Shown here in pieces: positions 6,120 through 35,265 of a stretch of DNA of 64,000 nt. How positions within the stretch are numbered: the first letter of the stretch is position 1; the number at the start of each line of letters is the position of its first letter. Made by a program: the position numbers and the translations under genes. The notes beneath the pieces were generated by a model. That model was not told the DNA's origin. It saw only the letters and a list, made by a program, of their open reading frames with translations, and searched no databases. Source of the DNA: Amphiscolops sp. MND2022 (lineage: Eukaryota); NCBI GenBank assembly GCA_964187785.1, contig OZ076414.1, positions 50,158,001 to 50,222,000 on the forward strand, written 5' to 3'.

Positions 6120-9100
6120 TAAACAGAAATTCCTCCTCGATACTGGTTCAATGGTTTCCATCATCAAGTTCGTTGTCGTAGAGAATGCAGTTGTGTTGTC
6201 TTTAAGAAATCCGTTTTTACAGTGTTTGGAGAATTTATTTGAAGCGAGAAAATGGATTCCAAGGATACTACAAGACCCATTAGCGACGTGAATTCATGAT
6301 CAACACAGCAGCAATTCTTCCTTCCACTACAAGACTTTCCACTGTCAAAGCAGGTTCGATTAAAGTTCACGGAAAAGTTACTCTCCCACTCAAAACTCTT
6401 TCCTTACGACGGTGTATTAATCATGAATTTTACGTCGCTAATGTGTCTTGTAATATCCTTGGAATCCATTTTCTTGCTTCAAATAATTTCTCCATAGACT
6501 GTAAAAACGGATTACTTAAAGACAACACAACTACACTCTCTACGACAACGAACTTCACAAAATGCAACCATATTTCTGTTAATAAAGTTGACATCGATAT
6601 TCCTGATGTCGTAAACGAACGTTTACAAACTATTTTGGGCAATTTCAAAGACGTGTTTGGAGATGTTGACTTTAAAATTAGTGTACAGCATCAAATAGTT
6701 CATTGAATAGAGCTCACCGCAGACGGCCCATTTGGAACTCCAAGAAAACTATGTCCGGAAAAATACAATATAGCAACGCAGTGTTTTGAATCAATGGCTA
6801 ATACTGGATTTTGTTTACCCTCTTGTAGTCAATTTGCTTCACCATTACACATGGTACCAAACAAAGAACCAGATAAATGGAGACCTTGCGGAGATTATAG
6901 AAAATTGAATAACGTAACAAAACGCGACTGCTATCCCCTTCCTCAATTATCTGATTTCAATTTATTTTGAAAGAAAGTTTTCAGCAAGTTGGACTTGGTT
7001 AAGGCATACCATCAGATACCAGTACATCCTGATGATATCGAAAAAACAGCAGTGACAACACCGTTTGGTTTATACGAGTTTCAAGAATGCCTTTCGGTCT
7101 CCGGAACGAAAGACAGACCTTCCAAAGGTTCATGAATTCAGTTTTTCAAGGTCTTGATTTGGTTTTCGCTTTTGTCGATGATGTGCTGATTGCTTCAGAA
7201 GATATTGAAACCCATTTCAAAAATGTCGCAGCTGTTTTGGATCGATTGAAGAAGTTCGGGCTCCGTTGTTCTCTGAAAAAGTGTGAATGGATGAAAGACG
7301 AAGTTGAATTCCTTGGATTGCTGATCACTTCTGAAGGACTACAACCAAAGGCAGACAAAGTGGAAACGATAAAAACCTGGCCTCGGTCAACATCATACAA
7401 ACGTCTAAGAAGCATTATAAGTATGGTCTCTTTTATTAGACAGCAAGTGCCTCATTACGCCGAAATAGTAGAACCACTGCAATTATTACCTAACGAAAGT
7501 CAATCAGCGTGTAATTCACAAGTTTCAAATGACACTATATTCCAATGGGATACAATACACGACGAAGCGTCCTCAAACCTAAAAAAAGCCGAACGTGTCT
7601 TGCTATATCATTTATCCCACGATGGAACGCTCACACTTACGACGGACGCTTCCGACAAGGCCATTGGAGGCGTTTTGCCTGACAATAGGAAGGATGGAAC
7701 CAGTGTCCCACTCGCTTTCTCTTCACGTAAATTATCAGTTGCCGAGCGTAATTATTCGGTATTTGATAAAGAATTGTTGACGGTTTTTGGTGCTACACAA
7801 AAGTTTAGGCGTTACATTGAAGGGAGACATTGTGTGGTTTTTACGGATCACAAACCTATTATTGCTTCTTTCCGAAAAATAGCTGACCATTCTCTGCGAC
7901 AATCTCGACAGTTTTCGTTGTTATCAGAATTTATAGATGATACAATCTATATTTCTGGTGATTCAAACGTTTTTGCTGATTGTTTGTCTCGTCCTGAGGT
8001 TGAGGAAGTAAGCACAGATCAGCCGAAACTCATATCCGCTGTCACGTGCGATCCTTTTGACTTACAGTTTATTGCTGAAGCACAAACGTCAGAATTCAAA
8101 AAGGAAATGAACAAAGTTTATAGCCACGGCACGAAATCAGTCCAAATTCCACCAAATACAACAATCTTGTGTGACAACAATATTGAACCTCGCCCAATTG
8201 TTCCTAAAGACATGAGAAAAAGATTGTTTTTGAACTTTCACAACATGTCGCATCCAAATTGGAAGGCAACCAACAAGCTTATTAATGCATGTTTCACTTG
8301 GCCTTATTTGTCCTAGGACATCAAAGAATGGTGCACGGATTGCCTCAAATGCCACAAGAGCAAAGTCACAAGACATACAATCACACCAATATCACCAACT
8401 GAAAGATTCCCTTCTAGATTTGAACATTTGCATATGGACATAGTTGGACCATTACCTGCGGTGTCTAATTGCCATCACAGGTAGATTTTATCTTTCATCG
8501 ATCGTTCTACCAATCGGGTTGAAGCCACTCCAATAAGATCAATTACTGCCACTGTGGTTGCTGAAACGTTCATGTCAACCTAGTTTTCGAGATTTGGAGT
8601 TCCATTTTGTATAAACAACTTACCAAGGACCTCAGTTTGAATGCGATTTGTTTGCCGAACTTGCCAAAGTGCTTGGTTCTGCATGCTTGCGTACTGCACC
8701 TTGGCATCCTCAAGCAAATGGAAAAAATGAACGTTATCACAGAACACTAAAGGCATCTTTAGCAGCCTCGCCTCTACCATGGATTCAAGCCTCACCAGTA
8801 ATACTTTTTAGCCATCACATCATTCCAAATTCTCAAGGAATATCGCCTGTTCAAATGGTTACCGGTTCTGATGCTTTCGTTCCTAGTATATTCGGTAATG
8901 ACACTCCACCAAGATTTACTCGCGTATTTGTTTCCAAATTATTAACTCATTTGCAGCTTTCGGAATTTACTGTTACACCATCAAGCAAATTACTTTCAAA
9001 GATAAGTTACGTACCCAAAGCTCTCCAGGATTGCTCTCATGTTTGGCTGCGAGTAGATTGCACAAACCGCCTTTGGAAGCACCGTATAGTGGTCCTTTTC

Positions 9101-9129
9101 CGGTGTTGGAACGTGATTCAAAAACTAAG
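6120..9129 (+). pseudogene. pol: Gypsy pol (PR, RT, RNase H, integrase), disrupted; 3' part displaced by the nested insertion
   Basis: FLLDTGS (PR); [28 protein letters not shown] (RT); TTDASDKAIG, DKELL, FTDHKP (RH); HPQANGKNERYHRTLK (IN). Confidence 0.9.
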
Positions 9130-9455
9130 TGTTTTAAAGTAGCTCGAGTGGTTTTCTAGGCGAAAGCGTTTAGGTTCAATTCATTTATTGATATTCTATT
9201 TCACACAATGACAAATAATGGATGAACATTGATTTATATTATGAGGAGAAATAATTCAATCTTTTTCCATTCTCGTTTTCTCTCTCATCAGTAGGTTTTT
9301 CTTCTCTCTCTCCGGAGATTATTGTCCCTCGTCTCTTTTTTCTTTGGGTATTTCCATTTTTCTCGAATTTTCTTTTTTGTCCAATCATGTTTGAGAATGC
9401 CATTCCTTCTGAATATCTTCATCCAAAAATAATATAAGTCATGATGAATATCACA
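9130..9455 (-). repeat. 3' LTR of the env-bearing element (326 bp)
   Basis: TGTTTTAAAG...AATATCACA direct repeat of 23059-23383; preceded by the TSD CTAAG. Confidence 0.97.
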
Positions 9456-10083
9456 GTCGGGCACTTTTTGAAAAAGCGGTACCATCGAGCGAATTTGAAC
9501 CATTTTTTTTGCAAAAGTTTTGAATTGTGCCACAGTCCACCTGGAAGTCATGGGAGCATGCATATGTTTTTTTAGAGTATTTTTTTTTCGAGATTTTGGT
9601 TTCGGTCAAAGATTTTTCAACTAGGCGAAATCCTTTCAGCACAATTGGCTTCATTCAGTCGAAAGGGAAATCTCATTTTTTTTTGTTTTCCAAAAGCTTT
9701 TAAGTCATTTGAATATACTTTGAATAATGAGATGTGAAGATTCACTAATGGGTTTTCGTTTTTAAAGTAATGATTTCTTTCAATTTTCTTCCTTCCCCAA
9801 TCAACTTTGCTGAGTCCAGTCAATTTCGGTAATGGGTTTTTGGAATAGAAATGCAGATAAGAAGATTTGTTTGAGGGCATTGGCTCCAATAATTGGTTTT
9901 TGTATAATTGAAGTTGGGTTTTCGGGATTGTTTGAGAACTCACTTTGTTCGGATAAAGGGATAAGCGATTTTCTTCGCTAATGGGTTTTTGCTTTTACGA
10001 ACATGACCTCTTGTTTGTTTTTCGGTCATGAACCCAATAATTGGCAAAGTTTGTAAGGGTTATCGAGTTTTTTCAGAGCCAAA

Positions 10084-10341
10084 ATGTTGAAATTTGTCGT
10101 TCTGTCACTTTTGTTTGTGTGGTTGGTGACAGCTTGTGTGAGGGTCACAATTGATGAAAGTCACCTCGAAGCCCTATGTTGTGCCAACGGCACATATTTG
10201 TTGATAAATGGGATGGAGACATCCTTTGAAGAGGGTTGGGGGTATTTGTGCCCTGGAGCATCTTTGACAGCTGGGAGTGTTGGCTTCAGTGGAAGGCTCC
10301 TTATCGCTCTCGTCGCTGTAATACGAGTAGCCTGTTTTTGA
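10084..10341 (+). CDS. Antisense 85-aa ORF with signal peptide and hydrophobic C-terminus (small secreted or membrane/GPI-type protein candidate)
   Basis: MLKFVVLSLLFVWLVTA...RLLIALVAVIRVACF; ATG in AAAATG context just after an acceptor-like TTTTTTCAG (10076). Confidence 0.55.
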   Translation: MLKFVVLSLLFVWLVTACVRVTIDESHLEALCCANGTYLLINGMETSFEEGWGYLCPGASLTAGSVGFSGRLLIALVAVIRVACF

Positions 10342-10600
10342 GTTGGCGGCGCTGAGTGCCCAAAAGGACCAAAGATGATGCATGCAACAACAAACATCAT
10401 TGTCTCTTTTTTGTTTGTTTTGCTATAGTATAGAAGAATTTAGATTCAACTCAATTCGTGTAGTCACTTTTCACGCAATGATGAGTAATTGGGATTATTG
10501 TAATTGGGATAATTGCGTTGCTGCAGCCCTGTACTAGCTTTTCAGGATAGGAATGCTTACTGCCACGTACTGCATTGCATTAATCCAAATTGCTTTAACA

Positions 10601-11928
10601 ATGACTAGTACGTATTGTATTGCTGATGCTGCTTCCCGCGACTACAGGGCCCACCGCGATGAAGTTAATTTCAAGTAAGTTGTTCATTTCTTTTCGAGTT
10701 TTGGGAAACTTCTAGGATGAAATTCAAAAATATGGCTCCATAGCATTAAAGAATTTTGTTCGGAGATTAATGTGAACTAATTTTCAAAGTCATATGTAGA
10801 GTCAGATTGAAGGGCGTTCACTTTGAAAGTTGAGAAGTTGATCATTTTGTTCTGTTCTTACAGCGTTACTGACGCATCACAGTTGTCGGAAAAGGATGCT
10901 GCGTTGCATAATTCTAATCAAAAACGCATTGAAGACATTTGGGAGTTCTTACGCGAGGGTTCTGCTATGTTCCGTCTGGGCGTTCCCTCTTTTGACATTG
11001 TCACGTTGCAAGAAGGGGAAGAATTGCCATGTTTCCCAAGTGCTCCAACGAAGGTGATCGGAGGGAATGTTATTCAGCCTTCGCCAGATCTTGAAAAATT
11101 ATCGAAAGAAAAGAGTCTCACCCGACGGAAGTTTCTGAACAGGGTTATTGTAGAAGAAGACAATGGAGAGCGAGCGTGCCCTGTGCTGCCTGGTTCGACC
11201 ATCTTCCTTGAATGTTACCTGCCCGCTGGAAAGGAGATGTTCAAGTACCAAAATTTCGGAGGGTCGCAGGAAAGAAGTTTCACTGCAACAAGAGGCTGGT
11301 GGTATACTGCGTCCCATTTCGAACCAGCAATGGGTGAGAGTGTGAGTCAACTGTTGGTTTCCGGTGATGGTCAAAAGGTTCGGTATTGGTATTTCTAAAA
11401 AGAGCAAACACAACCAACAGGTCAGTACAAGAAATTTTATTGGTTTTTTTTCTTTAGTTTTGGTTAACCACCAATTGTGAGAGGACTGCCCGTCTCGCGT
11501 TGAACGCCTTCACCACTCTCAATTCTTTTCTGGATTTCCTCTCAAGTGAACCCCAGAGATGGTACAAAGGGTTCCGCTGGTGCCTGCAGAGACCCGGAGA
11601 GACTGTGTTGCTGCCTGCTGGGTCGGTTCATCTGGTTGTAACAAGGCCCCCCGGTGGCGATCAAAGCTGCTGGACCTTTCTGCCTGGATACATCGGCTGG
11701 ATTGAGGGTGTCGACCGGGAACGATTAATGCGTTCCATGCGCTGTGATTTCCGCAGAGGCTTCGAAAAGACTCCTGAAGAGATGGCAAAGTTGAAAGGGA
11801 ACCACTGGGGGAAGTTTCAGGAGCTAGGTTTGGGAGCAAGCGGAACTGGAACTGCTCAACCCATCAACAGCAGTAAAAAATCGAAGAAAAGGAAGCGTTG
11901 TAACGGGCGCTTCGTGAAATCAGACTAA
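10601..11928 (+). CDS. Spliced antisense JmjC-domain 2OG/Fe(II) dioxygenase. Exons 10601-10674, 10864-11377, 11458-11928 (352 aa; 368 aa if the in-frame ATG at 10553 is used)
   Basis: Intron 1 GTAAGT...TTACAG (10675-10863, phase 2) and intron 2 GTTCGG...TCTTTAG (11378-11457, phase 0) join the frames exactly. Spliced product has YTASHFEP (HxE), GDGQK|FWL (K-x-W), QRPGETVLLPAGSVHLVVT (distal His) and a basic tail KKSKKRKR. Confidence 0.82.
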
Positions 11929-12003
11929 GTATACATTTTTTTTTGAATTTCATGTATTTTTTTTTTGTTTTCTTCCTGCATGCAAAGTGGACCGTGAATG
12001 AAG

Positions 12004-14259
12004 TTAGAGCTCAGTGGCCTCTTGATCATGTTTTCTCAGCCTCGATAAATACTGCCTCAGGAATGTATAAGTTGACTTTTTGTCGGCTGTTTCATTGAAA
12101 TCGGATTGAATTTCCAAGGGTAGGACCAATGCACATTTATGTAATGGGTGCTCAGGATGTGCTTGGAGAAATTCATAGTCTTCAGGTTTGACTACAGATA
12201 CCGGCAAAGTTTTGATTTTACGCCCCTCGTGTAATGTTCGAAAAGGAAATCTTTTGTGTATTTTAATCCATTTATGGATAAGATACGAATAGCCCCAATG
12301 AAGTGCGATGCTAATAACGAAAGACAATAACCCAAAACACAAAGACCATTTCCAGGGAATGTACTGCCCAAATTTTGCGTCAAATTCTGGCTTCATATGA
12401 CGTAACTTTGAAACAATAGGTGCAGCCAATTTATGTAAAGCTTCCCGATCCGGTGCGGAAGTTTCCAGGAATTGAAATTTCGGTTGAATGTCATCAAAGA
12501 CTTGCTGTTGCGCTTTCGCGATCGAACTGAAATGTGGTAATTCTTCCAATGGAGGAATCAGTTCGAAAATGTTTGCTAAAGGATCAGGTAAGGTTACGTC
12601 CAAACGAATACTTGGTAATAACGCACAAGCTGATAAGTCCGATCGTAGTCTGATGTTATCTCCTGCCAGTTGTCGCCCGCATGCCAAGGTTAAGATGCAA
12701 ACCCTGCAACCAGGGTGCTCGATTCTTTCTAACGGATTGCTGCCATTGCTGGCGGTTTCCACCAACTTGTAATTCGAAGAAGCTGCCATTATGAGCCAAC
12801 GTTCAAAGCCGATGTTTTGCGCTTTTTCTGCCCTTGGTAGTTGAATAATATCCATCTTGCACCGTTCGATTGCCATCATGTGGTCACTGTGAAAAAACAA
12901 AGTGGCCAGACATGAATGCTTTGACGTGTCGGTAGGAATAGCCTTGGTGCAAATTGAAAATCTTGTTGAACCAATGCACAAATCAAGATCTTCGTCGTTG
13001 ATGAGAGCAAGTTCCTGATTATCCATCGAAATGGCTAGGTATTTTGCCTCGGGTCTCCAAAGGAACGCTCTCCCCGACTGTCCATCTGGCATCGGTATTG
13101 GTATCGCGTGTAAAACATTTAGCACGGTAGTTCTCGAAGCCATTGGGATCGCAAGTGTAAGCATTAAACCAGCCTTTGTAGGTACAACATTCGTTACAAG
13201 TTTTGATTCGTAATATGAAAGAATTTCCTGTGGTGGTATAGCCAAAGTGAGGCGATCAGCATTTCCGGATTCTCCAAGATGAATAGTGGTCAGAATATGT
13301 CTCAATTGTTCTCGAGGAACCAAAGAAATGGGCAAATATTGGTTGATGAGCGGTGCGAGAGCATTTAAGATGTTGATTCGAAAAGCATATAGGGCTGCCC
13401 GGTAACTTTTAATGTTGGTGTATAAGGTTTGAAAAATACTTTGTAAAATGATTGAATGATGTCCGGTCTGCTGTCGAGTGTAGAGATATTGTAAACAATT
13501 TCGCATTTCGTTGGTATTGTTGCGAATGATAGCGAACTGTTTCGAAGCTGCCTCCCAGTTTTTGTTTTGAGTGTCAATAATGACCTGTTGTTTTGCTCGA
13601 ACATCACGTAACTCCCCTGCGACCATGAAAAATTTATCATTTTGCTCACTTGTTATAGTTTTGATTTCATCAGTGATGATGTTCATGTACTGATATGCCG
13701 CTTCAATGTTCTTCTGATTTTGTTTGATCCTGCCATCGTCGCATCCACCAAATACTGTCTTCACTACACAAACAACCTTTGAGCCGGCAATGCCCACGCC
13801 TAAAACTGCAGCGGCTCCAGCCAATATTGCAGTTAAACCCCTCGTCTGCCTATGTAGTTGGGCAGAGTCAGTCCCCGAGTGTCTCAACAGGCTCCCAATT
13901 TCGTCAATTAGATATTTTATATCGCCCTGTGCTTCCTTGTTTTGCTGTAATACCTCATTGGCGATCCATCTTAGACCAGAAGAGTGGTCCTCGAGATTGG
14001 TGAAGTTCAACGGACAGCCGTAGTTTTTATATGTCCATAATTTTTCGATTTCGTTCGAAAGGTCCATGTAGCGCTGTTCTATGACAGCTTCGTATGAAGG
14101 AAAAGGAACCAAGATGTCGATTTTCACAAATTTTTCGGTGAGCAATGTTTGTTGTTTCAAATTGAAGATGACACCCTGTTTCGTTTCGGCGGTCTGGGAG
14201 TTAGTACAGGCAGTTGGGAGTGTTTGTAGGATGAGAAGGGCTGTAATTATAAAAGTCAT
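12004..14259 (-). CDS. env: Envelope fusion glycoprotein (class I, F-type), 751 aa
   Basis: N-terminal signal peptide, RQTR furin-type site followed by the hydrophobic fusion peptide GLTAILAGAAAVLGVGIAG, heptad-rich region, Cys-rich ectodomain, NFT/NNT sequons, TM segment SLCFGLLSFVISIALHWGYSYLI. Confidence 0.9.
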   Translation of the reverse strand: MTFIITALLILQTLPTACTNSQTAETKQGVIFNLKQQTLLTEKFVKIDILVPFPSYEAVIEQRYMDLSNEIEKLWTYKNYGCPLNFTNLEDHSSGLRWIANEVLQQNKEAQGDIKYLIDEIGSLLRHSGTDSAQLHRQTRGLTAILAGAAAVLGVGIAGSKVVCVVKTVFGGCDDGRIKQNQKNIEAAYQYMNIITDEIKTITSEQNDKFFMVAGELRDVRAKQQVIIDTQNKNWEAASKQFAIIRNNTNEMRNCLQYLYTRQQTGHHSIILQSIFQTLYTNIKSYRAALYAFRINILNALAPLINQYLPISLVPREQLRHILTTIHLGESGNADRLTLAIPPQEILSYYESKLVTNVVPTKAGLMLTLAIPMASRTTVLNVLHAIPIPMPDGQSGRAFLWRPEAKYLAISMDNQELALINDEDLDLCIGSTRFSICTKAIPTDTSKHSCLATLFFHSDHMMAIERCKMDIIQLPRAEKAQNIGFERWLIMAASSNYKLVETASNGSNPLERIEHPGCRVCILTLACGRQLAGDNIRLRSDLSACALLPSIRLDVTLPDPLANIFELIPPLEELPHFSSIAKAQQQVFDDIQPKFQFLETSAPDREALHKLAAPIVSKLRHMKPEFDAKFGQYIPWKWSLCFGLLSFVISIALHWGYSYLIHKWIKIHKRFPFRTLHEGRKIKTLPVSVVKPEDYEFLQAHPEHPLHKCALVLPLEIQSDFNETADKKSTYTFLRQYLSRLRKHDQEATEL

Positions 14260-14307
14260 TTTGAATTTTTTTTGTGAAATTTATTTCGAGGCTTACTATT
14301 CTTTCGT

Positions 14308-14688
14308 CTAGCCAGGGATGCCGCGGCAGGGCGGGGTGGGCACTCGTTCGTTTTGTTCAGAGCCAGATTGTGCAGCGCGGATGAAATTGGTTGGGGCTTT
14401 ATACATTTTCATGAGCTCGGACTTAACAGTTTGGAAGCGGACTTCATCCCACATGTTGAAGGCTGGTTTCCGGAAGTTATTCGAATGTAGATACAAAGTG
14501 AATTCAATCCATCTGGGGCTCATATATTCAAAGTTTACTACTTGGTTGTTATGTAATGTTAGTTCGAGGTTTTGGTTCAGCAGGCGAATACTTTTGATGG
14601 CATATACGGTGTCGTTATAAAGACAATTCCAGTTCATTGGCAAAGGGGTTTTGGTTAGAGGCATTTCAAAAGGTGTCAACATAAACAA
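14308..14688 (-). CDS. Small ORF (up to 126 aa) directly upstream of env, unknown function
   Basis: Open frame flanked by AT-rich non-coding DNA; stop lies 48 nt before the env ATG; globular-looking composition. Confidence 0.55.
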   Translation of the reverse strand: MFMLTPFEMPLTKTPLPMNWNCLYNDTVYAIKSIRLLNQNLELTLHNNQVVNFEYMSPRWIEFTLYLHSNNFRKPAFNMWDEVRFQTVKSELMKMYKAPTNFIRAAQSGSEQNERVPTPPCRGIPG

Positions 14689-15496
14689 AGAATAAATACA
14701 ATGAATATATGTTTTTTAATTAATTCGATTAAATGAAGAATTGTGTGAATTTTGAGTAACTTTAAGCGGTAAAAGAATTATGAGTTAACTAGTTGAAATG
14801 AAGTTGTGGTTATTTGCAACAAATTGTAAGTTAATGAGTAGGTTAATAGAAGTTATAAAATAACACTAAGTAAAAGAAGTGAATTGTTATTAAGTGTAAT
14901 GAATAATAAGTTGAATTAAAAACGAATAATTTTAATGAAATGTGGTTGATAATGTACGTGAAATAAATAGGTAAAAGATTTGAAAATTTGGAGTTCAGAA
15001 TGCAAGAGTCAAGTTTGTTGTTCGTGTAGAAGCAAGAAGTTCGTTGAATGAAGCGAATTTTTATTATTTTTTTGTTCATCGAATTTGAGCCAATCAAAGC
15101 GCAGTATTCATCTTAGCCAATAAGCAAGTACTGCAGCCAATTGTTAAGAGCTTGATTTCAGCTTCAATTGCCGGGAGCCAGTGAAAATGCCTTATTGGGC
15201 GTGATTTATTCGGAATTTCGGTAACCAAAGCGAGGAGGGCGCACGATTGATTAAGCAGCAATGACATAAGATTGCATCCAATCGCTTTCACGACCAAACG
15301 ACCCAATGGATATATTCTAAGTCGTGTTTTTTTTCAGCAAAATGAAGACTAAACACAGAGCACGATTGATTAATGAAGCAATGATTGGATAAAGCTCTCA
15401 ATCGCCTAAGCAACTGTAAGAATGGTTTCATTTATTTTGCGCGTTTAACATGAGTGCATTGAGCAATTGATTAAGGACACAATGTAATATAATGAC

Positions 15497-18400
15497 TCAA
15501 TCGCTTCCACTGTCGTAACTAAGATGTTGACGCAAATTACCATCAATGAGTTTTTGATGTAAAAGTAAAGGCACTACCCGTCGATTATGTGTTCTGGTGT
15601 TTTGTGGTCCTGTCTGTTGTCTGATTCGGCTGGTAAGCGGTGTTGGAGATGATACTTTCCGAGGTGGAGATGGAGATCGACTTATTGAAGGTTGTTCGCC
15701 GGAACTTGAGTAGTCTGAAATGGAATTCTTCGGACTTCGAAAGTGAAATAATGTCGTTTGTTCTCCGTTTGCATCACTGTCATTCGCTGGCAGTGTACTA
15801 GCGTCCGAAAAGTTGTCAATATCGTTGGCGTCGAAAAGTCTCCCGAATTCAATTTCGGAATCTGAATCCGGGCCGATAGGTTGGTTTATGTTAACGTCAT
15901 CGTTGGGAAAGTGAAGTATGACTGATACTTCCTCTTCTTGTTCGTTGATAGCGTGTATTTCGTCATGAACCAACAGAACTTCGGTGTCATTATCGAAAAT
16001 AGATTGAATGATCTTCAATGCTTCTGAGACAATCGTTTTCGGGAACTGTTCCATCTGTATTGCAACTTGCTTCTTCGTTTGTTCGTGCAAAAATGTCTTC
16101 ACATCCTTCAATCCTTGTCTGAAGGCAGGAAGCGAGGAACCGTCCAGCTCATGCTTCCTTACTACAATGAAAATAATGGACTTGCCTTCTATGGTGCGAA
16201 CGATTGTGTCGCCTACGTCTGCCCTTCTGATGGTTTCAAGTAATGCGATAGGTTGTGTAGTGTTGGTTATTCGAAGAAGTTGCTCCAATGTTAAACATTG
16301 CGATATGCAATAGACGGTCTCAAACGTTGGGTTGCATGTTGACTCCAATTGTTGCTCCAAGTGACTGATAGAGTTATACATTGTGAACTGTCTTGCTAGG
16401 GCAAAACGATCGTCGCGTCGCAACGCGTACCTTCGAGTGGCGCCATATCTCGCATCATCGGAAGAAGTTTCGTCCGGGTTGTCGATCCGATAATCGGTAG
16501 TGTCGATGACTTCGGGACCGTCTTCCATCAGAGTTGGGACATGTCCTTCCACTACAAAAGATTCACGGTCAATGGCGTCGTGAAACGTTGGTTCTGATGT
16601 TGTTTTGATAGGACTTGTTGGTAAAGAATCAGGTTGGAAGGTGATGACACTACGTTCCGAGGAAAATTGAATGTTTTTGGTGAGTCCTGGATCAGACACT
16701 GTCTTTCGTTGCTGGAAGATATGCTGAACTATTGCATTGTCGAATAACTCAGGTTCTGTATTTTCATTCGTCAAAGAGGCATCCGGAGCGAAATTTTGCT
16801 CATTGATATCCGGCAAGTCTTCGACGTCAAATTGAGGTTGGCATGGTCTAAGACGCATTCGGTGTAAGCATTGAGTTTCGTTGGTACCAACTTTGCGCAC
16901 AATGTAGTTCGAGTTGGTGAGAACCTTTTCGACACGATAAAGCGGTAACCATTTCAATTTCCCTTTGCTCAAAGGATCATTTTGTGTGACACTTTTCGGT
17001 TCGAGAATTAAGCAGTAAGAATGAAGATCCAAGGGTGTAGCGTTCGCTTTCCTGTCGTAATATTGTCTATAATTATGATAAGCTGCAATCATCGATTCTT
17101 TAGCTCGTTCGAATGATGCAGTGGCTGCATCTTGCAATTCCCGCAAAACTTCGAAGTTTGCTTGTGCGGTTCTCATTTTTGCGTTTTGGAATCGTAAATC
17201 CAATGGAGTAATCGGCGTGCGTCCATGAAAAAGATCAGAAGGCGTGCACCCAATAGATGGATTATAAGTTGTATTGTGAATAAAAACAGCGAAATCCAAA
17301 TATTTATGCCAATTCGTGAAGCTCTCGTTTGAATTCAATTTGAGAATGTGTTTCAACGGTCCATGGCTCCTTTTCACTAAGCCGATGGACTGAGCATGCT
17401 TCAAAGTGCAATTTTTTAACTGAACTTCAAGCTGTGCTGTCAAAGCTGTCATTAGAGTGGAAGTAAAAGCTGTTCCCAAATCGCAAATAATCATCCGTGG
17501 AATGTAAGCGTGTCTCAGGAAGATACTGATCAAGGCTTTGGCAACATTGTCTGATTCTCCTTTTGTCAATGCTACGGCAAACAAGTATCGAGAAAACACA
17601 TCTATTGCAGTCAACACAAATGTGTGAGGAGATGCTTGTAGTTTTCCAACCAAGTCGTTTTGCATCGTGTCTGCTGGGAAATTTCGCTCCGAAGCTACGG
17701 GTTGTAGAGGTGGTTTGAGAGACACTTGCTTGGCTTCTTTCGTTTGTAAACATGTGAGACAGTTCCTGATATAATCAGTGAGAAATTCGGTGAAATTAGG
17801 AAAATAGAAACGTTTCCGAAATTCTGCGATAGTGCGAGTTATACCAATGTGTCCTCTCCATCTGCTGTTGTGTATTCGGTATAGTAATTCTTTTTGTAGG
17901 TGTGCTGGTACACAAAACTGTTCATGTGATACTTTTCCCGTTTGATCGAAAAACTTGCGGTAAAGAACGCCATCTTTCAGCATGAGTCGTGGTAGTTGTT
18001 TGAAGTATTTGAGTTCAGTCGTTTTGAGATATGCCGGGCTAAGAGTTTTGTTGGTACGTATCCATTCGATTACTTTCGAGAGTGATTTATCCTGTCTTTG
18101 TTCCGCTGCTAAATTCAGTGGAAGTTCATTGTTCGTGAAATTGAAATCATCTAGCGGGTTGGGCGAGGCAAGTGCATTGACAGAGTATAATCCGTTCACA
18201 TAGGGATCTGTTGGCTTCTCATCCCAAGGAGTATGTTCTGCAGCTAAGAAATGTGAAATAGAGTTGTCAGGTGTGTTGACAACAAAATCAACGGTAACTG
18301 ATTGTGTAGGTAGTCGGTCGGATATCTTCAATCGTAACTTTTCGTGTGGATTGATGTGTATTCGTGATAGATAGTCAGCGGCAACATTAGTGTTTCCTGG

Positions 18401-20869
18401 TATGTGTCCTAAGACGAAATTGAAGCTGAGAACATGGTCAACAGCGCTCCAAAGTGAAGATGGTATCGTTTTAGCTTGAAAGAATCTGGTCAGTGCCCTG
18501 TTGTCAGTCAGAATCAGAATAGGGTTCTGAATTCCCCAAACTATATGGGCAAAAGTTTGTAAAGCGAAGTATACTGCTAGAAATTCTTTGGCATAAATTG
18601 ACAATTTCAATTGACTGGGTTGAAAGATCTTAGAACCAAAGGACACTGGTGCGTATTGTTTTCTGCTCGTTTTTGTGTTCGTGTCACATGTGTAATCGTC
18701 TACCAAAAGAACATAACCCGCTGCGTAGAATGAAGCATCTGCCATGATGATATATTGTTTTTCGGCTATTGGTAGGCGAAGGGTCATTTGACAGGCATTC
18801 TTCAAGTCTTGTTTCAGTATCTCAAAAGTTTCGTTATGTTTATCGGTCAATTGGAATTCATTCGTAGATCGCAGCAACTGGTAAAAAGGAAGAAGTTTTT
18901 CAGCTAGTCCGGGTAAAAACGCTTTGTAAAATTGGTAAAAACCAATCATTCGTTTGACTTGTCTCACGTTTTTCGGAATAGGCAAATCTTTTAGAAATTT
19001 TTCTACTTTTTCAAGGGTTGGTGCCATACCCTCAGGGGTGATCGTATTGCCCAAAAATTCAATCTTGTCCAGACCGAATTGACATTTGTTTACTGACAAC
19101 TTGAGACCTGAGTTTCGAATATGGAGAAAAACATCGTCCAAATGGGCTAACATTTCATCTACTGATTTGGCTCCAAGTCCAATATCATCGACGTACAGGA
19201 AACATTTGTCCGCTGTTATGACTGGGTCAAGAAATTTTCGCATGTAGAAACTGAAGGAACTCATTGAACGGCTGAGACCCTGGGCCAATCTTGTAAAAGC
19301 GAAAGTTCGCGATGAGAAATTGAAGGCAAGCAGTTGTATCGACCTTTCATCTGCCAAAGGAATCGTGAAGTAGCCCTGAGATCCGTCCATTTTGCAAAAG
19401 ATTTTTTTTCCTGCTAAGTGCGAGCTCGCATCAGCTAAAGTTGAAATCGGAAAATTATTGTTGTGATAATCTTTCGTTATCAAGTGGTTGATCTTTCGTA
19501 AATCAACCAAGAGGCGTAATTTCCCGGAAGGTTTCCGCTGTGCGAACAATGGTGATGAATATTTTGAGAAGTCTAGAGGCTTGATTATACCGTAATGTTG
19601 GAGCAATGCTAATTCTACGAAAAGTTCATCTTTCAAATGGAGAGGTGTTGGTGGCGATTGGCTATAAACTGGATCATCATGTTGAGGCGTTAAGGTAACT
19701 GTGAAGTCTTTGCTTTTGCCAATATCTAACCGGTGTCGGGCAAAAATGTCATTATATCTCACAAGTAAATCTTCAACCCTTTTTCGGTCATCCATTGATA
19801 ATATAGATCCTGTCCAATCGAAGTCGTTCAAGAATTTCTTGCGATGGTTTTCGTTTGTGATTGGGTCCATTTGCTCCAATGCATTGAATTTTTTAATGGT
19901 ATCGTAAATTGTTTTCTGAGGACCTTTCAGTTGTTCTGGGTGTGCACAATTTTCTGGTGTCGCATACCATTCATCGGTTGTGAACTTTCTTGTTTCCTGA
20001 GTATGATTTCCCGATTGAGTTAGTGAAATTGAATGTGACAAGTTTCTCTGTTGTTTCTGGTTAGAGATGCACTGAATCAAATTATTGTCTAACGGTGTGA
20101 GATATTTCGCCTGTTCGGGAGTTAAAATTTCGAATTTAGCTACGCACGTATTGCTGGTAAATCTGATCGGTATTTCTGCTAGATTGAGTGCGAGTGCTTT
20201 TACACATCCGTTGGTGACCTTTGACAAGGAATTTGTTAGGAACAATTGGTATTTCTTTTCTAGGGTTGCGATTGACGTTACCACCCCCACTGTTGATTCC
20301 GCTTGAGCTTTTTTGTCTGCTTCTAATATTAGTAGCGCTTCTTGATTAGGTTGTATGATGATGTCTTCAGTAGTGTAAAGGTCGATGATTGTTGGTTTGG
20401 CATTTGCTTTTGACGTCAGTGAGGCGTCGGATTCGTACTGGCTGAGTATGAAAGACATTTGTTGTGACGTGAGGCGGCGATTACGGACGTCAATAGAAAG
20501 TTCATAATTATGAAGAAATGGAAAACCAAGTAGAATGCTGTTCAGTTTTGGAAAAACTAAAAACTTCTCTTCGAATATCAACTGCCCAATTTTGAATTGA
20601 ATTGTCGCGGTAAAGAGAACATGGGCTTTTTCGGTATGTGCCATGAGAACATTGAAATCTGGAGGAGGTGATTGCACGATACGGACATCTGTTTGGGTTG
20701 AAATGGCGTCGAAAATTTCTTTTGGCATACCACTGGAAAAAGCTCCAGTGTCTAATACTGCTCTATAAACTAATGTACCGAATTGACAGGGAACTAATAA
20801 TGCATTAGAGGCTGGTTCTGGTACTTTTAATGTAATTGGTAAGTTAGGTTTGACTTCCGGTGCATGCAT
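15497..20869 (-). CDS. pol: Pol polyprotein, 1790 aa from Met: PR, dUTPase-like, RT, RNase H, IN (catalytic E changed to K), macro-like, acidic/Ser-rich tail
   Basis: VLDTGA (PR); KMDGSQGY, YVDDIG (RT); MADAS, KEFLAV, LTDNRAL, ADYLSR (RH); HNSRWRGH...CLTC, DLVG, CDLG, GLVKRSH (IN). Confidence 0.97.
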   Translation of the reverse strand: MHAPEVKPNLPITLKVPEPASNALLVPCQFGTLVYRAVLDTGAFSSGMPKEIFDAISTQTDVRIVQSPPPDFNVLMAHTEKAHVLFTATIQFKIGQLIFEEKFLVFPKLNSILLGFPFLHNYELSIDVRNRRLTSQQMSFILSQYESDASLTSKANAKPTIIDLYTTEDIIIQPNQEALLILEADKKAQAESTVGVVTSIATLEKKYQLFLTNSLSKVTNGCVKALALNLAEIPIRFTSNTCVAKFEILTPEQAKYLTPLDNNLIQCISNQKQQRNLSHSISLTQSGNHTQETRKFTTDEWYATPENCAHPEQLKGPQKTIYDTIKKFNALEQMDPITNENHRKKFLNDFDWTGSILSMDDRKRVEDLLVRYNDIFARHRLDIGKSKDFTVTLTPQHDDPVYSQSPPTPLHLKDELFVELALLQHYGIIKPLDFSKYSSPLFAQRKPSGKLRLLVDLRKINHLITKDYHNNNFPISTLADASSHLAGKKIFCKMDGSQGYFTIPLADERSIQLLAFNFSSRTFAFTRLAQGLSRSMSSFSFYMRKFLDPVITADKCFLYVDDIGLGAKSVDEMLAHLDDVFLHIRNSGLKLSVNKCQFGLDKIEFLGNTITPEGMAPTLEKVEKFLKDLPIPKNVRQVKRMIGFYQFYKAFLPGLAEKLLPFYQLLRSTNEFQLTDKHNETFEILKQDLKNACQMTLRLPIAEKQYIIMADASFYAAGYVLLVDDYTCDTNTKTSRKQYAPVSFGSKIFQPSQLKLSIYAKEFLAVYFALQTFAHIVWGIQNPILILTDNRALTRFFQAKTIPSSLWSAVDHVLSFNFVLGHIPGNTNVAADYLSRIHINPHEKLRLKISDRLPTQSVTVDFVVNTPDNSISHFLAAEHTPWDEKPTDPYVNGLYSVNALASPNPLDDFNFTNNELPLNLAAEQRQDKSLSKVIEWIRTNKTLSPAYLKTTELKYFKQLPRLMLKDGVLYRKFFDQTGKVSHEQFCVPAHLQKELLYRIHNSRWRGHIGITRTIAEFRKRFYFPNFTEFLTDYIRNCLTCLQTKEAKQVSLKPPLQPVASERNFPADTMQNDLVGKLQASPHTFVLTAIDVFSRYLFAVALTKGESDNVAKALISIFLRHAYIPRMIICDLGTAFTSTLMTALTAQLEVQLKNCTLKHAQSIGLVKRSHGPLKHILKLNSNESFTNWHKYLDFAVFIHNTTYNPSIGCTPSDLFHGRTPITPLDLRFQNAKMRTAQANFEVLRELQDAATASFERAKESMIAAYHNYRQYYDRKANATPLDLHSYCLILEPKSVTQNDPLSKGKLKWLPLYRVEKVLTNSNYIVRKVGTNETQCLHRMRLRPCQPQFDVEDLPDINEQNFAPDASLTNENTEPELFDNAIVQHIFQQRKTVSDPGLTKNIQFSSERSVITFQPDSLPTSPIKTTSEPTFHDAIDRESFVVEGHVPTLMEDGPEVIDTTDYRIDNPDETSSDDARYGATRRYALRRDDRFALARQFTMYNSISHLEQQLESTCNPTFETVYCISQCLTLEQLLRITNTTQPIALLETIRRADVGDTIVRTIEGKSIIFIVVRKHELDGSSLPAFRQGLKDVKTFLHEQTKKQVAIQMEQFPKTIVSEALKIIQSIFDNDTEVLLVHDEIHAINEQEEEVSVILHFPNDDVNINQPIGPDSDSEIEFGRLFDANDIDNFSDASTLPANDSDANGEQTTLFHFRSPKNSISDYSSSGEQPSISRSPSPPRKVSSPTPLTSRIRQQTGPQNTRTHNRRVVPLLLHQKLIDGNLRQHLSYDSGSD

Positions 20870-20898
20870 TGATGTAACTGGTGGCTGTGGCGTTTTAT

Positions 20899-21882
20899 TC
20901 AGTTTTTTGGATTGTCGCTTGAAGTTGGTTGAAGTTCAGCGTTCTGGTCCCGTTGCTGTGGGTACGGAATACTAGATCCTCGTCGTGGCGCTGGTTTGCT
21001 CCAACAGTTTTGTTGCGTGTGACCATTCTTGCCGCAATTACGACAGAAAGGTCGTCTGTTGCCACCACGACCGTATCCTCGTTGGTAACCTCTTGGTCCA
21101 CCTCGTCCATATCCACGGTAGTTGTTGGACGGTTGGTAGCCTTGATTGTAGTAACTCGAATTGTAAGCCATGTTTGCTAACTGTTGATCATACTCTTGCT
21201 GGTTCAATTGAAGTGCTTGTGTGACAGATGTAAGATGAGTGAGCGCTTCGAGCACTGCGTTGTTACTTGGTTCAATTGTGACTTCATTGAAAGCTGTTTT
21301 AAGCTCTCCATCGGGTGCAGATATGGCTGCGCGCAGTCGTCGTTTCACAATTTGGCAAAGGGCATCAGTATCTGTGCCATCCGGCTCCCGAAGGAGAACT
21401 TTTTTGAGTTTGTGTGGCATTCCTTCGATGAACTGGTGTCTGACTCTTCTCGTGCGTTCGTCGGTTCGGTCCACGGCTGGTCCTACACCGTCAGGAATAG
21501 CAACCAATGCAAGACTTTGTAAGTCAGTCAAATAGTCATCTGGCTCCTCGGTTTGTGGATCAAATTTTCGATTTGACAGAAGTGCGTCTGTGGTAGCTTG
21601 TTTATCAGCTCCCGCATAACGATCTCTTAAAGCGGTGAGTGCTAAGTCAACGTCATCTCGGGTTGCTTCGGGTTGTGCTAAGTAGAAGTTCAGTGCATTT
21701 CCAGCTAAGTGCAAATGAAGATAACGGGCACGCTGATTGTTGGCATCTGGTATGCGTGCTACTGCGAGGCTGGCTCTGAAAAGTCCTTCGAATTGGGTGA
21801 AGTTTTCCTTGGGTGTTCCGCTGAAGGCTTTGAGGTGGATATGTGGTCCGTTTGCAGGTGCAGCAGGCGCTGCATGTGCCAT
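20899..21882 (-). CDS. gag: Gag, 327 aa, with CCHC zinc knuckle
   Basis: FSGTPKEN, HLHLAGNALNFY and HQFIEGMP capsid motifs; RG/YG-rich segment; CRNCGKNGHTQQNC (CX2CX4HX4C). Confidence 0.95.
   Translation of the reverse strand: MAHAAPAAPANGPHIHLKAFSGTPKENFTQFEGLFRASLAVARIPDANNQRARYLHLHLAGNALNFYLAQPEATRDDVDLALTALRDRYAGADKQATTDALLSNRKFDPQTEEPDDYLTDLQSLALVAIPDGVGPAVDRTDERTRRVRHQFIEGMPHKLKKVLLREPDGTDTDALCQIVKRRLRAAISAPDGELKTAFNEVTIEPSNNAVLEALTHLTSVTQALQLNQQEYDQQLANMAYNSSYYNQGYQPSNNYRGYGRGGPRGYQRGYGRGGNRRPFCRNCGKNGHTQQNCWSKPAPRRGSSIPYPQQRDQNAELQPTSSDNPKN
20902..20908 (-). promoter_or_regulatory. -1 ribosomal frameshift slippery heptamer A AAA AAC at the gag-pol junction
   Basis: Gag ends CCA AAA AAC TGA. 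The -1 frame (AAA CTG AAT AAA ACG CCA CAG CCA CCA GTT ACA TCA ATG) is open into pol. Confidence 0.85.
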
Positions 21883-22542
21883 TGTTCAAAGAAAATTTGT
21901 TTTTCTTCACTTGGTCGTCTCCTGTCTTGTACTTGGGGTCCGGGCAAAATTTTTCTTTTCGGCCCGGTTTTTTTATTTTTGTAATTATTGGCTGCTGCTA
22001 TACGAATTTGTTCGATAGAACAAATTCGATCTCGAAAATTTCGTCAGAATTGCGAAATTCGCACTCTGGGGCGAGATATTGAGCCCCGAAATTGCGATGA
22101 AAGATAGAATTTAGTGGAGTCAACGTCTTTGATTTTGTTTTTAAGTGTGCTCTGGGAGCCTTCTGTCGCATGCGAGCCAATGAAAATAGCTGTTCTGGTT
22201 GTAAGAGCGCATCGCTGGGGTTATTCCTTTTTTTCGATATTTTTTTTTGATAACGTTGTAAAAAGATAGTCGCAAAATAGGTATTAATTCAGCTGGTAGT
22301 TATAGAATTATCAAAATTCGATGATAACACTTGGGTTTGTTTTCGTAGCGCGATGCAATGCGAAAACCCTGCGTTAGTAACCACTATCTGCATAATCTGT
22401 AGAAATATGATGGCGAAAATAGATAAAATTTTGTCCAAAAACGACTTGTGGTGCTAAGATGAATGTTTTGAATGTTGAAGACTTAACTTATACAATAGAT
22501 GATTTGTTGTAGTATGATATTCAACAAGTGTATTTGGAAAGA

Positions 22543-22872
22543 CTAATTTTCAGCGTCGTTACACGGATCCGAAAAGTTTCCCACATACTCAATTAGTTCT
22601 TCAAAAGTATGAATGCAATTGATATTTGGGTCTAGAAGTGGTTGATAGTTTATCAAGGCAGTTTCTAATTGTTGCCATGCCGTAGTGTATTTGTAAACGA
22701 GCTGATGAAATACCTGGTGTGGTGCGTCGAAGGTGACTCCCAGTAAAAGGATAGGTTTTCCATATGACCAATAAATTCGTTTGATTAATAAATCCTCATC
22801 TGGTGTAACCCATAACATGTGAACTGTGTGAAAAGCGAATTCAGGATTCAAATAATCGATGGAAATTTCCAT
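22543..22872 (-). CDS. Upstream ORF in the 5' leader, 109 aa, unknown function
   Basis: Uninterrupted ATG-initiated ORF in an otherwise AT-rich, stop-rich leader; no recognisable motif. Confidence 0.45.
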   Translation of the reverse strand: MEISIDYLNPEFAFHTVHMLWVTPDEDLLIKRIYWSYGKPILLLGVTFDAPHQVFHQLVYKYTTAWQQLETALINYQPLLDPNINCIHTFEELIEYVGNFSDPCNDAEN

Positions 22873-23040
22873 TTGTTCGGTCTGTTTAAACGACTATTTC
22901 GGTGGTTGTAGATCGATCATGAATGTATTTTTGTTACAATAAATACGAGAAGTTTGCGATTCTTTCAAATTCGGAAAATTCCTTCGGAAAATTTTGATTG
23001 TTTTGTTTTTGCATTGGTGAAGGTGATGGAGAATATCAAT

Positions 23041-23058
23041 GAGGACACCTTGTCACCA
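23041..23058 (-). promoter_or_regulatory. Primer-binding-site-like sequence TGGTGACAAGGTGTCCTC (primer tRNA not assigned)
   Basis: Starts with TGG directly after the LTR end on the minus strand. Confidence 0.65.
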
Positions 23059-23383
23059 TGTTTTAAAGTAGCTCGAGTGGTTTTCTAGGCGAAAGCGTTT
23101 AGGTTCAATTCATTTATTGATATTCTATTTCACACAATGACAAATAATGGATGAACATTGATTTATATTATGAGGAGAAATAATTCAATCTTTTTCCATT
23201 CTCGTTTTCTCTCTCATCTGTAGGTTTTTCTTCTCTCTTTCCGGAGATTATTGTCCCTCGTCTCTTTTTTTTTGGGTATTTCCATTTTTCTCGAATTTTC
23301 TTTTTTGTCCAATCATGTTTGAGAATGCCATTCCTTCTGAATATCTTCATCCAAAAATAATACAAGTCATGATGAATATCACA
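23059..23383 (-). repeat. 5' LTR of the env-bearing element (325 bp)
   Basis: Direct repeat of 9130-9455; followed by the TSD CTAAG; PBS immediately internal. Confidence 0.97.
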
Positions 23384-23388
23384 CTAAG

Positions 23389-23640
23389 CTACTTCAGCAA
23401 GCTAACAATTCTGCGAGAGTAGGTTTAGACAGAGTTAAACCTTGTTATCTTCCAAAAAATTCTTTTGTCCCTAAACCTATTGAATCCATACACACAGAAG
23501 ATGATGGTAGTTTTTTTCTATGCAGAGGACCATTCAACACCGATTTGATAGGCTGTGACGACCCAGAATGTCCCATCGAATGGTTCCATTACAACTGTGT
23601 CGGTATCGATAATCCCCCTAAAGGGAAATGAGTCTGCCCA
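23389..23640 (+). pseudogene. Integrase C-terminus of the host Gypsy: GPY/F-module tail plus ING-type PHD finger
   Basis: Continues the frame at 9121-9129 across the CTAAG TSD: ERDSKTK|LLQQANNSARVGLDRVKPCY...LCRGPFNTDLIGCDDPECPIEWFHYNCVGIDNPPKGK*VCP, with TGA at the conserved Trp (23629-23631). Confidence 0.85.
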
Positions 23641-27829: not shown

Positions 27830-28748
27830 TGTTGGCGCCAGTCATCAGCAGCCAAAAGAATGTTGATTTGGAACATGCTGGTTGAGAACCAAAACTTAAA
27901 CACTTACAAACTCAGATGAAAAGTTGAAGAAACGTCAAGTGTGACAAATGTTCAAAACCCGCGCCCAAATGGGTTTTCTCGAAGACTCTTAGTCAAAGGG
28001 CCATGAAACTTAGCTCACATATGCAGGTACATAACACGGACACACTGGCTAAATTTCAAGGTCATTCACCCACTATAACCCTTTTTACCCCTCACATGTG
28101 TGATATTCAAGGTCATTGTGCCAAAAAATGTAATGTTTCTTATTTACCACTATGACCACTTTAGAATGTAACTCTGATGCAATTGATGATATTTACATTG
28201 CGTAAACATGCTTCGGAGCCCACCTAACCCACATTCAAGACTTACCATAAGCTTTGTTTACATAGTCAATCATTTAATAATTCAACTAAATGTCATATAT
28301 TTATAGAACATATTTCACGTGATATTTGCTCTATATTTACTGTAGAAATTAAACGATATGTATACGTTTATTAGATAGGGATTTTCATTACTGAATAGCT
28401 ATAGTCAAGTTGGTTCTCGGGACTGCGAGACTAATTAACTTTCAACATCTTAACAGCTTCTCGCTAGAGGCGGAGCGAATAAGCAGCTACTCTCATAGTT
28501 GGAGGGCCGGAGCGCGAGAAGATACAGAGCGGTAAGTTTGTGACGGATCTCATCGGATCCAAACAAGTGCTAGAGGGGTCACAGGAGACTTCACGGGTCA
28601 CATAGGACCTCACCAGTCAAAAGATACAGTCATTTAAAACAAGAAAACCAGGATTTATTTAGTAACGGTCCACAGTACTAAGCAACGGATCAGGGCGGCG
28701 TAAAGCTTGTCAAGCGTCAGCGCAGGATAAGAGCAGGCAGCCGTTAGA
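27830..28748 (+). repeat. BEL 5' LTR
   Basis: TGTTGGCG...CCGTTAGA; roughly 90% similar to 34357-35265 by eye. Confidence 0.9.
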
Positions 28749-28750
28749 TT

Positions 28751-28768
28751 TGGTCCACCGACCCGGAC
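28751..28768 (+). promoter_or_regulatory. BEL primer-binding site, tRNA-Tyr-like (degenerate)
   Basis: TGGTCCACCGACCCGGAC vs the tRNA-Tyr complement TGGTCCTTCGAGCCGGAA. Confidence 0.65.
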
Positions 28769-28871
28769 TAGAAGAAGAGGACGAGGACGAAGACGACTCG
28801 TCGGTGGACAAGTGAGAAGATAGCCCAAGAAGAACAAGTGTCTGGATCTTGGACTCTCTGATTTTGTATAT

Positions 28872-29087
28872 CTGGGAGTTTGGGCTGTTGTGACTCTGGG
28901 AGATTTGACTACTGTGTCTCTGGGAGATTGAGCTACTGTGTCGCTGGGACATTGGGCTTCTTTGTCTCTGGGAAATTGGGCTATTGAATCTCTGGGAGAC
29001 TGGGCTATTGTGTCTCTAGGAGATTGGGCTATTGTGTCTCAGGGAGATTGGGCTATTTTGACTCTGGCAGTTTGAGCTATTGTGACT
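28872..29087. repeat. Minisatellite, 9 x 24 bp (consensus CTGGGAGATTGGGCTATTGTGTCT), in the BEL leader
   Basis: Nine contiguous degenerate units counted directly; no spacers. Confidence 0.95.
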
Positions 29088-34356: not shown

Positions 34357-35265
34357 TGTTGGCGGCAGTCATCAGCAGCCAAAAAAGTTGATTTGGAACA
34401 AGCTGGTTGAGAAACAAAACTCAAACTTTTAGAAACTTAGATGAAAATTTGAAGAAATATCAAGTGTTACAAATGTTCAAAAATATCCTTCCAGAGGTTT
34501 TCTCGAAGACTCTTAGTCATAGAGTCATGAAACGTGGCACATATATGCAAGTAAATAACACGGACACACTGGCTAAGTTTCAGGGTCATTCATCCACTAT
34601 AACCTTTTTTAACCGCACATGTGTGATATTCAAGGTCATTTTGCCAAAAATATAAAGTTTCTTATTTACCCCTATGACCACCTTAGAATGTAACTCTGTT
34701 GCAAATGATGATATTTACATTGTGTAAACATGCTTCGGAGCCCACCTAACCCACACTCAAGACTCGCCATGTGCTTTGTTTACATAGCCAATAACTTTAA
34801 AAATTCACCTAAATGTCATATTATTATATAACATATTTCAACTGATATTCGCTCTATATTTACTGTAGAATTGTAAACGATATGTATACCATTTTTAGAT
34901 AGGGATTTTAACGACTGAATAGCTATTGTCAAGTTGGAACTCGGGACCACGAGACTAATTAACTTTCCACATCTTTACAGCTTTTCGCTAGAGTCAGTGC
35001 GAATAAGTAGCTACTCTCATAGTTGGAGAGCCGGAGCGCGTGAAGATAGAGAGTTTGTGACGGATCACATCGGATCCAAACAAGTGCAAGAGGGATTGCA
35101 GGAGATTCCACGGGTCACATAGGACCTCACCAGTCAAAAGATACAGTCAATTAAAACAAGAAAACCAGGATTTATTTAGTAACGGTCCACAGTACTAAGC
35201 AACAGATCAGGGCGGCGTAAAGCTTGTCAAGCGTCATCGCAGGATAAGGGCAAGCAGCCGTTACA
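34357..35265 (+). repeat. BEL 3' LTR
   Basis: TGTTGGCG...CCGTTACA; preceded by GAAAACAGGGCCGACAA. Confidence 0.9.

Follow-up and report, generated by a model that had tools for sequence, protein, structure and literature searches.

The 64,000-nucleotide window analyzed here (positions 50,158,001 to 50,222,000 of the forward strand of contig OZ076414.1, assembly GCA_964187785.1, Amphiscolops sp. MND2022) contains a 14,254-bp element at window positions 9130–23383. It reads from 5′ to 3′ long terminal repeat (LTR) on the minus strand, belongs to the Ty3/gypsy retrotransposons, has moved recently and carries an envelope (env) gene of the F type. Its core is of a known kind, and the new part is its cargo: the region antisense to the element is predicted to encode a spliced gene for a JmjC dioxygenase, the main point missed in an initial annotation of this DNA. 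We posit, at what we judge to be an even chance, that the antisense JmjC enzyme of this env-F gypsy element is imported into the nucleus and erases repressive methylation from histones, thereby letting the element escape silencing. The gene prediction, the enzymatic activity and the histone substrate are all drawn from sequence comparison and from the fold model of a relative.

The predicted JmjC gene spans 10601–11928 on the plus strand and comprises three exons with 352 codons. Exon 1 (10601–10674; 24 codons, with little measurable divergence) runs from the ATG to a GTAAGT donor and is followed by a predicted 189-nt intron (10675–10863, GTAAGT...TTACAG). Exon 2 (10864–11377) is separated by an 80-nt intron (11378–11457, GTTCGG...TTTAG) from exon 3 (11458–11928). 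Exon 2 supplies the T-x-x-H-x-E and G-x-K motifs, namely a threonine (11306), the iron ligands histidine (11315) and glutamate (11321), and a lysine (11375); exon 3 supplies the third iron ligand (His 11629) and a basic C-terminal tail, such as is found in 8 of 9 LTR-borne JmjC proteins. These five positions align with those of relatives and of host JmjC genes, and a product with the full iron triad and the threonine and lysine for 2-oxoglutarate is predicted to be a JmjC dioxygenase. A profile built from 30 relatives, none of them from the family of the window element, recovers exon 3 with an E-value of 8.7e-10, with nothing else below 0.3 among 1615 six-frame segments. The second intron is the top-scoring of 55 open GT-AG joins, at 43.5 bits versus 34.6 for exon 3 alone. 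The initial annotation had counted two antisense genes in this region; the one for an 85-aa protein stands (discussed below), and the 143-aa open reading frame (ORF), rejected as a complete gene, is a fragment of the predicted middle exon of the JmjC gene.

A genome-wide search with the LTR gave at least 41 matches from the 40 of 79 candidates scored, and nine other LTR pairs lying about 14 kb apart were fetched full-length (hereinafter siblings). All four splice sites of the JmjC gene are unchanged in every sibling. Among the older copies, GT/AG is retained in three of the four that can be aligned (in M2–M4, with partial loss in M1), M5–M7 being left out of this count for poor alignment. The five catalytic positions are likewise retained in all ten young copies and in M2–M4. 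The ratio of nonsynonymous to synonymous rates (dN/dS) is 0.22–0.41 for exon 2 in all 8 pairs and 0.22–0.42 for exon 3 in all 4 pairs with silent change. Variants of exon 2 shared among the young copies also favor silent changes, with 9 silent against 5 replacing (P 0.0009); other frames give 0.7–1.8, and two control ORFs display no constraint.

For a comparison beyond the family, we used 13 distant env elements of the same genome, whose env proteins are 35–40% identical to that of the window element. Antisense ORFs, either before or after env, are present in all 13, and seven have a JmjC-like one; it was one of these ORFs that gave a match to window positions 11458–11928. The antisense cassette moves as a module, being placed after env in the window element and before it in other families; in the reverse transcriptase (RT) and env trees the cargo type tracks the family, with the window element forming a long branch. 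Searched against the genome, the JmjC protein of a relative matches at least 126 places (135 of 360 candidates scored), many of them paired about 7 kb apart. Eight JmjC contexts comprise three gypsy elements, two BEL/Pao LTR cases, two adjoining BEL-like pol pieces and one unassigned. In both BEL/Pao cases (L123:3883-4761 with L124, at G000:C4 45.37 Mb, and L125–L126) the JmjC ORF lies inside each of the two LTRs and antisense to gag-pol, and in the first of them DUF1759 and JmjC are both above cut-off. A separate multi-copy large repeat codes for a KDM2A/PHF8-like JmjC protein (E 3e-18) beside SET and BRCT genes. Repeats of this kind (L169–L172, at G000:C1 6.29 and 26.46 Mb) additionally have a transposase-like ORF with no Pfam match, which from its motifs we take to be Zisupton-like. 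Beyond this genome, a profile search of 1.84 billion representative proteins gave 173 matches at E ≤0.001, and all of the 150 matches listed are shorter than 460 aa; the names looked up for 10 distant ones were uninformative, one being 'hypothetical protein'.

The double-stranded β-helix fold characteristic of JmjC domains is predicted for a relative of the window protein (L067; predicted local distance difference test score, pLDDT, 85). Its VIA structural matches are headed by PHF2 (Z 15.2), KDM2A (14.8) and KDM7A (13.5; root-mean-square deviation about 4.2, 217 aligned), with the four best rows all belonging to the KDM2/7 family, as do the only JmjC matches at the level of sequence profiles, of which KDM7A is the best (E 0.011). 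We favor a histone demethylase because of these KDM2/7-leaning matches, the basic tail, the intact active site and the parallel case of the JmjC gene paired with SET. Transposon-borne erasers also have precedents, in TET/JBP of fungi (PMC12730594) and AlkB of an orchid gypsy element (PMC9289625).

A number of observations weigh against this reading. Scanned singly, the window exons fall below the cut-off of the Pfam JmjC family PF02373 (exon 3 reaches 15.5 bits, E 0.024), which is passed by four of six single-exon relatives; exon 2 alone has no match to the relatives' profile among the 1615 segments, the second splice donor (GTTCGG) is weak, and a sequence search of exon 3 against solved structures returned nothing useful. 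The fold model is that of a relative which, in the core, shares no more than roughly a quarter of its residues with the window protein. A PHD or CXXC reader domain is typical of KDM2/KDM7 demethylases, and no such domain gave a Pfam match in exons 2 and 3, the short exon 1 offering just its 24 codons. In a tree of 15 JmjC cores (rows J7 and J8 removed by a motif filter), the LTR-borne genes do not join the KDM2/7-like repeat and point to no donor. One of the seven distant JmjC-like ORFs (F11) is assigned by motif alone, with no Pfam match and an acidic tail. Moreover, a different multi-piece antisense gene takes the place of JmjC in the other six of the 13 distant elements, which implies that the lineage does not need JmjC. 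Finally, the fold fits a non-histone hydroxylase equally well, since the first 13 Foldseek rows for the relative are JMJD5, and JMJD5 (Z 13.3) and FIH (13.2) come within 2 Z of the VIA top, with JMJD6 at 12.7. An active hydroxylase like JMJD5, JMJD6, FIH or TYW5, working on proteins or RNA and altering splicing, translation or defense factors instead of histones, would also agree with the window protein being small and free of a reader domain, as those enzymes are. We consider this a serious contender of clearly lower probability, given that both the best VIA rows and the profile matches lead to KDM2/7, that the tail is basic and that a neighboring repeat pairs JmjC with SET.

Catalysis might also be dispensable, with the JmjC protein countering silencing through chromatin binding or titration of host factors in the manner of fission yeast Epe1, for which a non-enzymatic role is described in the accessible text of PMC7192584. 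The strong divergence of the LTR-borne JmjC proteins would be in keeping with such a role; set against this is the retention of the three iron ligands and the 2-oxoglutarate lysine across families whose silent sites are saturated, and we deem it the most improbable of the alternatives. Slightly better placed, and still quite improbable, is that the gene serves the host or the spread of the element in some other way (e.g., by altering the state of particle-producing cells), or that it is spliced differently or used only in part. The weak second donor, the prediction of splicing from sequence alone, the absence of shared variation in exon 3 among the ten young copies and the near-neutral value for singleton variants (0.67) would allow for this; conversely, both large exons are constrained relative to older copies, the splice sites are conserved and the second join is the best of 55.

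Under the histone demethylase reading, a 124-aa sense ORF (ORF124, see below) and env would be transcribed from an internal promoter, and the 85-aa membrane protein and the JmjC gene from separate antisense transcription. The JmjC protein would then go to the nucleus and strip repressive histone methylation, a main means of retroelement silencing in animals, such that the family stays transcribed. Without a reader domain, the enzyme may act broadly or via its basic tail. The persistence of introns in a retroelement would be explained by the antisense orientation: because genomic RNA does not read antisense introns as introns, those of the JmjC gene could outlast reverse transcription.

The gene that occupies the place of JmjC in the six other distant elements (L069–L073) is broken into some four pieces resembling exons. 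It contains Cys-box and His-box motifs, and its N-terminal part is putatively zinc-binding. From these motifs we presume the gene to be OTU protease-like, an identity not confirmed by Pfam searches of 9 pieces, a PDB profile search or a genome-wide OTU scan. More tentatively than for the window gene itself, and somewhat short of an even chance, we propose that at least three transposon classes in this genome (env-bearing gypsy, BEL/Pao and the large SET-bearing repeat) encode a working histone demethylase of their own, and that the env-gypsy lineage swaps erasers, JmjC or the OTU-like protease, in an antisense, intron-bearing cassette as a form of counter-defense. As the JmjC gene is small, belongs to families that are young and rich in copies, and has relatives consisting of one exon, its substrate is directly testable in vitro.

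The boundaries of the element are clear-cut. Its 3′ LTR (326 bp, 9130–9455) and 5′ LTR (325 bp, 23059–23383) are 98.8% identical, with three substitutions and one gap column, have TG...CA termini and are flanked by CTAAG target-site duplications (9125–9129 and 23384–23388), in line with the duplication and approximately 99% LTR identity described initially. Directly after the 5′ LTR lies an 11-nt primer-binding site (23048–23058, minus strand) complementary to the 3′ end of host tRNA-Leu(TAG) plus CCA. Units resembling tRNA-Leu form a long tandem array at G000:C8 35.59–35.64 Mb, with 909 pattern matches genome-wide. Inspection of the window sequence ahead of the 3′ LTR revealed no canonical polypurine tract or clear purine run. 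All nine siblings (13,965–14,279 bp) have their own 5-bp target duplication, 0–3 substitutions between their two LTRs and the whole internal layout including 9456–12000. The earlier view of a single mobile unit is thus upheld, none of the siblings lacking that stretch, and a one-off capture or nested insertion of 9456–12000 is ruled out. Pol is interrupted in five of the nine siblings and the JmjC exons in two; the young copies are recombinant mosaics. The insertion site is itself an older gypsy-type element (7036–9124 and 23389–23640, plus strand), the integrase C-terminus of which is split by the insertion; its right flank has a stretch containing a stop that we take to be PHD-finger-like.

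All the ORFs listed in the initial annotation exist, namely the leader (109 aa), gag (327 aa), pol (1790 aa), ORF124, env (751 aa) and the antisense frames of 85 and 143 aa. Gag (20899–21882, minus strand, as are the other sense features) has one CCHC knuckle, and the slippery heptamer A AAA AAC (20902–20908) at its stop is the likely site of a −1 frameshift into pol. This word is present in all ten copies, and in 12 of 12 distant elements it is at or adjoining the gag stop. The pol open frame (15497–20935), in the −1 frame relative to gag, has its first ATG at 20869, from which its 1790 aa are counted. No stable frameshift-stimulating hairpin was found downstream of the heptamer (−3.3 kcal/mol versus −5.1 for shuffles), and since none follows the slippery word, we only infer that Gag-Pol is produced via −1 frameshifting. 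A GTAAG or GTGAG word stands directly after the gag stop in nine of the 12 distant elements and is absent there in the window element; in those distant families it could be a splice donor offering an alternative route to Pol.

Pol codes in turn for a protease, a dUTPase-like domain, RT, RNase H, integrase and a 400-aa tail, with the protease-RT-RNase H-integrase sequence being the gypsy order. The initial annotation had placed two extra domains in pol. The first can be identified as a divergent dUTPase-like domain between protease and RT (20132–20419), with a Pfam score of 21.7 bits against a cut-off of 22 and a family profile that matches dUTPases (best E 8e-4). The second, a family-specific domain in the tail (15890–16372), offers a macrodomain-like lead only: atlas scores were 0.90–0.91 with the Macro annotation on 11% of one cluster, and there was no meaningful match to PDB sequences. 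The suggestion that the element is closer to complex retroviruses does not hold beyond analogy. By score ranking, as distinct from a tree, its RT is best matched by Ty3 (106 bits), followed by foamy virus (101), MLV-type (56) and HIV (below 36), and its env resembles paramyxo- and pneumovirus F proteins, which places it outside Retroviridae. The likeness is one of analogy alone because the core is Ty3/gypsy and env-F gypsy elements are already catalogued across animals.

Env (12004–14259) has an RQTR furin-like site at residues 137–140 followed by a hydrophobic fusion peptide, and a C-terminal membrane helix. Its predicted structure (pLDDT 72) resembles paramyxo- and pneumovirus F proteins with a best E of 5e-7 and low TM-scores, supporting the F-type assignment made earlier; a sequence search against solved structures gave nothing useful. 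In its gag-pol-env order, F-fold env, furin site, fusion peptide and membrane anchor, the element has the hallmarks of env-F errantiviruses.

The first antisense gene (10084–10341, plus strand) codes for the 85-aa protein, which has a hydrophobic stretch at either end, a C-CC-C pattern and one N-glycosylation motif, and which matches no Pfam family. Four invariant cysteines and the C-terminal hydrophobic stretch are common to this protein and those of 12 other elements, and a four-cysteine membrane-protein ORF was detected in all 13 distant env elements (10 by pattern, 3 by eye). Across 10084–10600 there are three alleles, with four of the nine siblings about 43% and two about 16% diverged, in backbones differing by only 1–4%. 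The silent sites of the alleles are saturated; they are therefore old and have been swapped in through recombination. We propose, with about even odds, that this protein is a cell-surface partner of env acting in entry or in a superinfection block.

On the sense strand, ORF124 (14308–14682) belongs to a repeat-borne family and has no Pfam or PDB match. It is constrained (P 0.0004), as is the leader ORF (22543–22872; P 0.002), for which we found no known family and no usable match in the atlas search. Both have distant relatives in the genome, and the selection tests bear out the earlier proposal that the small ORFs are coding. ORF124 relatives (L185–L196) lie in sense orientation between pol and env at eight of 12 fetched loci and in other repeat contexts at four; the antisense membrane gene was detected at six of these eight loci, the fetched stretches not reaching far enough to rule out a JmjC gene beyond env. 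Two further ORFs, of 87 aa (9617–9880) and 78 aa (14843–15079), are unconstrained (P about 0.33) and were taken as chance. Two clusters of CCAAT boxes suggest internal promoters: a putative antisense one upstream of the antisense genes (9644–10044, plus strand), with seven boxes in 9456–10083 versus 1.4 in base shuffles (P 0.001), and a putative one for ORF124 and env (15090–15388, minus strand), with seven boxes in the 814 bp between pol and ORF124 versus 1.75 (P 0.002). These values derive from simple shuffles, and coding env and pol are mildly enriched too. Elsewhere, the window contains direct repeats 6.5 kb apart and about 88–94% identical (27856–35263), a 24-bp tandem array (28841–29104) and a 2069-bp tandem repeat (59253–63690).

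The closest known systems, as far as the accessible portions of the sources cited here describe them, are the env-F 'ancient errantiviruses' catalogued across metazoans (Chary and Hayashi, PMC13524379). These share with the window element the Ty3/gypsy gag-pol-env architecture, an env of the F type bearing a furin site and a fusion peptide, young multi-copy insertions and a tRNA primer site; they differ in that the latter has an additional 2.5 kb of cargo on the antisense strand as well as two extra small ORFs. The main text of that study does not mention JmjC, demethylases, dUTPase or antisense genes, and in the searchable text of its seven supplements, where long cells are truncated and outside of which the element sequences lie, neither two N-terminal peptides nor the beginning of the LTR has an exact match; the core may thus still be catalogued there. 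The planarian giant gypsy element Burro (PMC6431247) is similarly env-F-related with many host-interacting domains, though these are apoptosis and ubiquitin domains in a single giant polyprotein, with JmjC unmentioned in the text available. Drosophila MDG1 elements also have small accessory ORFs (sORF1 and the FAST-like sORF2, PMC11952523), one of them for a short membrane protein with a single pass, and several relatives of the 85-aa protein share with sORF2 a basic stretch behind the membrane helix. However, the MDG1 sORFs are sense, mostly myristoylated and found in elements without env, whereas the 85-aa-type proteins are antisense, have a four-cysteine ectodomain and always occur beside env. 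The window protein itself starts with MLK, ends at its hydrophobic stretch with no cytoplasmic tail and is antisense, and hence does not qualify as FAST-like.

Cargo enzymes offer a second set of parallels. The bdelloid rotifer elements TelKA, Vesta and Juno (PMC5408684) share a dUTPase between protease and RT, an env-F in TelKA and enzymatic extra ORFs across unrelated retroelement classes; in contrast to an antisense spliced JmjC gene beside env, their cargo is a GDSL esterase or DEDDy exonuclease encoded as ORF3 after pol. The orchid gypsy element with an AlkB m6A demethylase (PMC9289625) likewise has an additional ORF for a 2-oxoglutarate/Fe(II) dioxygenase, which has been proposed to act against host control, but AlkB targets RNA, the element is an Ogre-like plant one, and the accessible text does not mention JmjC. 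Fungal TET/JBP DNA transposons, SET-bearing Harbinger/MuDR and plant VANDAL elements (PMC12730594) resemble the present case in that an epigenetic modifier passes between unrelated transposon lineages. They differ in being DNA transposons with a DNA-methyl eraser; JmjC is unmentioned in the portion seen, according to which no retrotransposon encoded TET/JBP. In the open literature, which takes in few subscription papers and none of the repeat catalogues Repbase, Dfam and GyDB, we found no published report of JmjC in an animal retrotransposon, and within the same bounds the lineage looks undescribed, as the initial annotation had surmised. The window element further illustrates that an invertebrate-type env gypsy can hold four accessory genes over two strands, which three-ORF surveys miss. 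If our proposal is correct, a retroelement with its own eraser of histone marks would represent a direct enzymatic counter-defense, of a kind so far described in fungi and plants, where the marks concerned are DNA-methyl and RNA-methyl ones.

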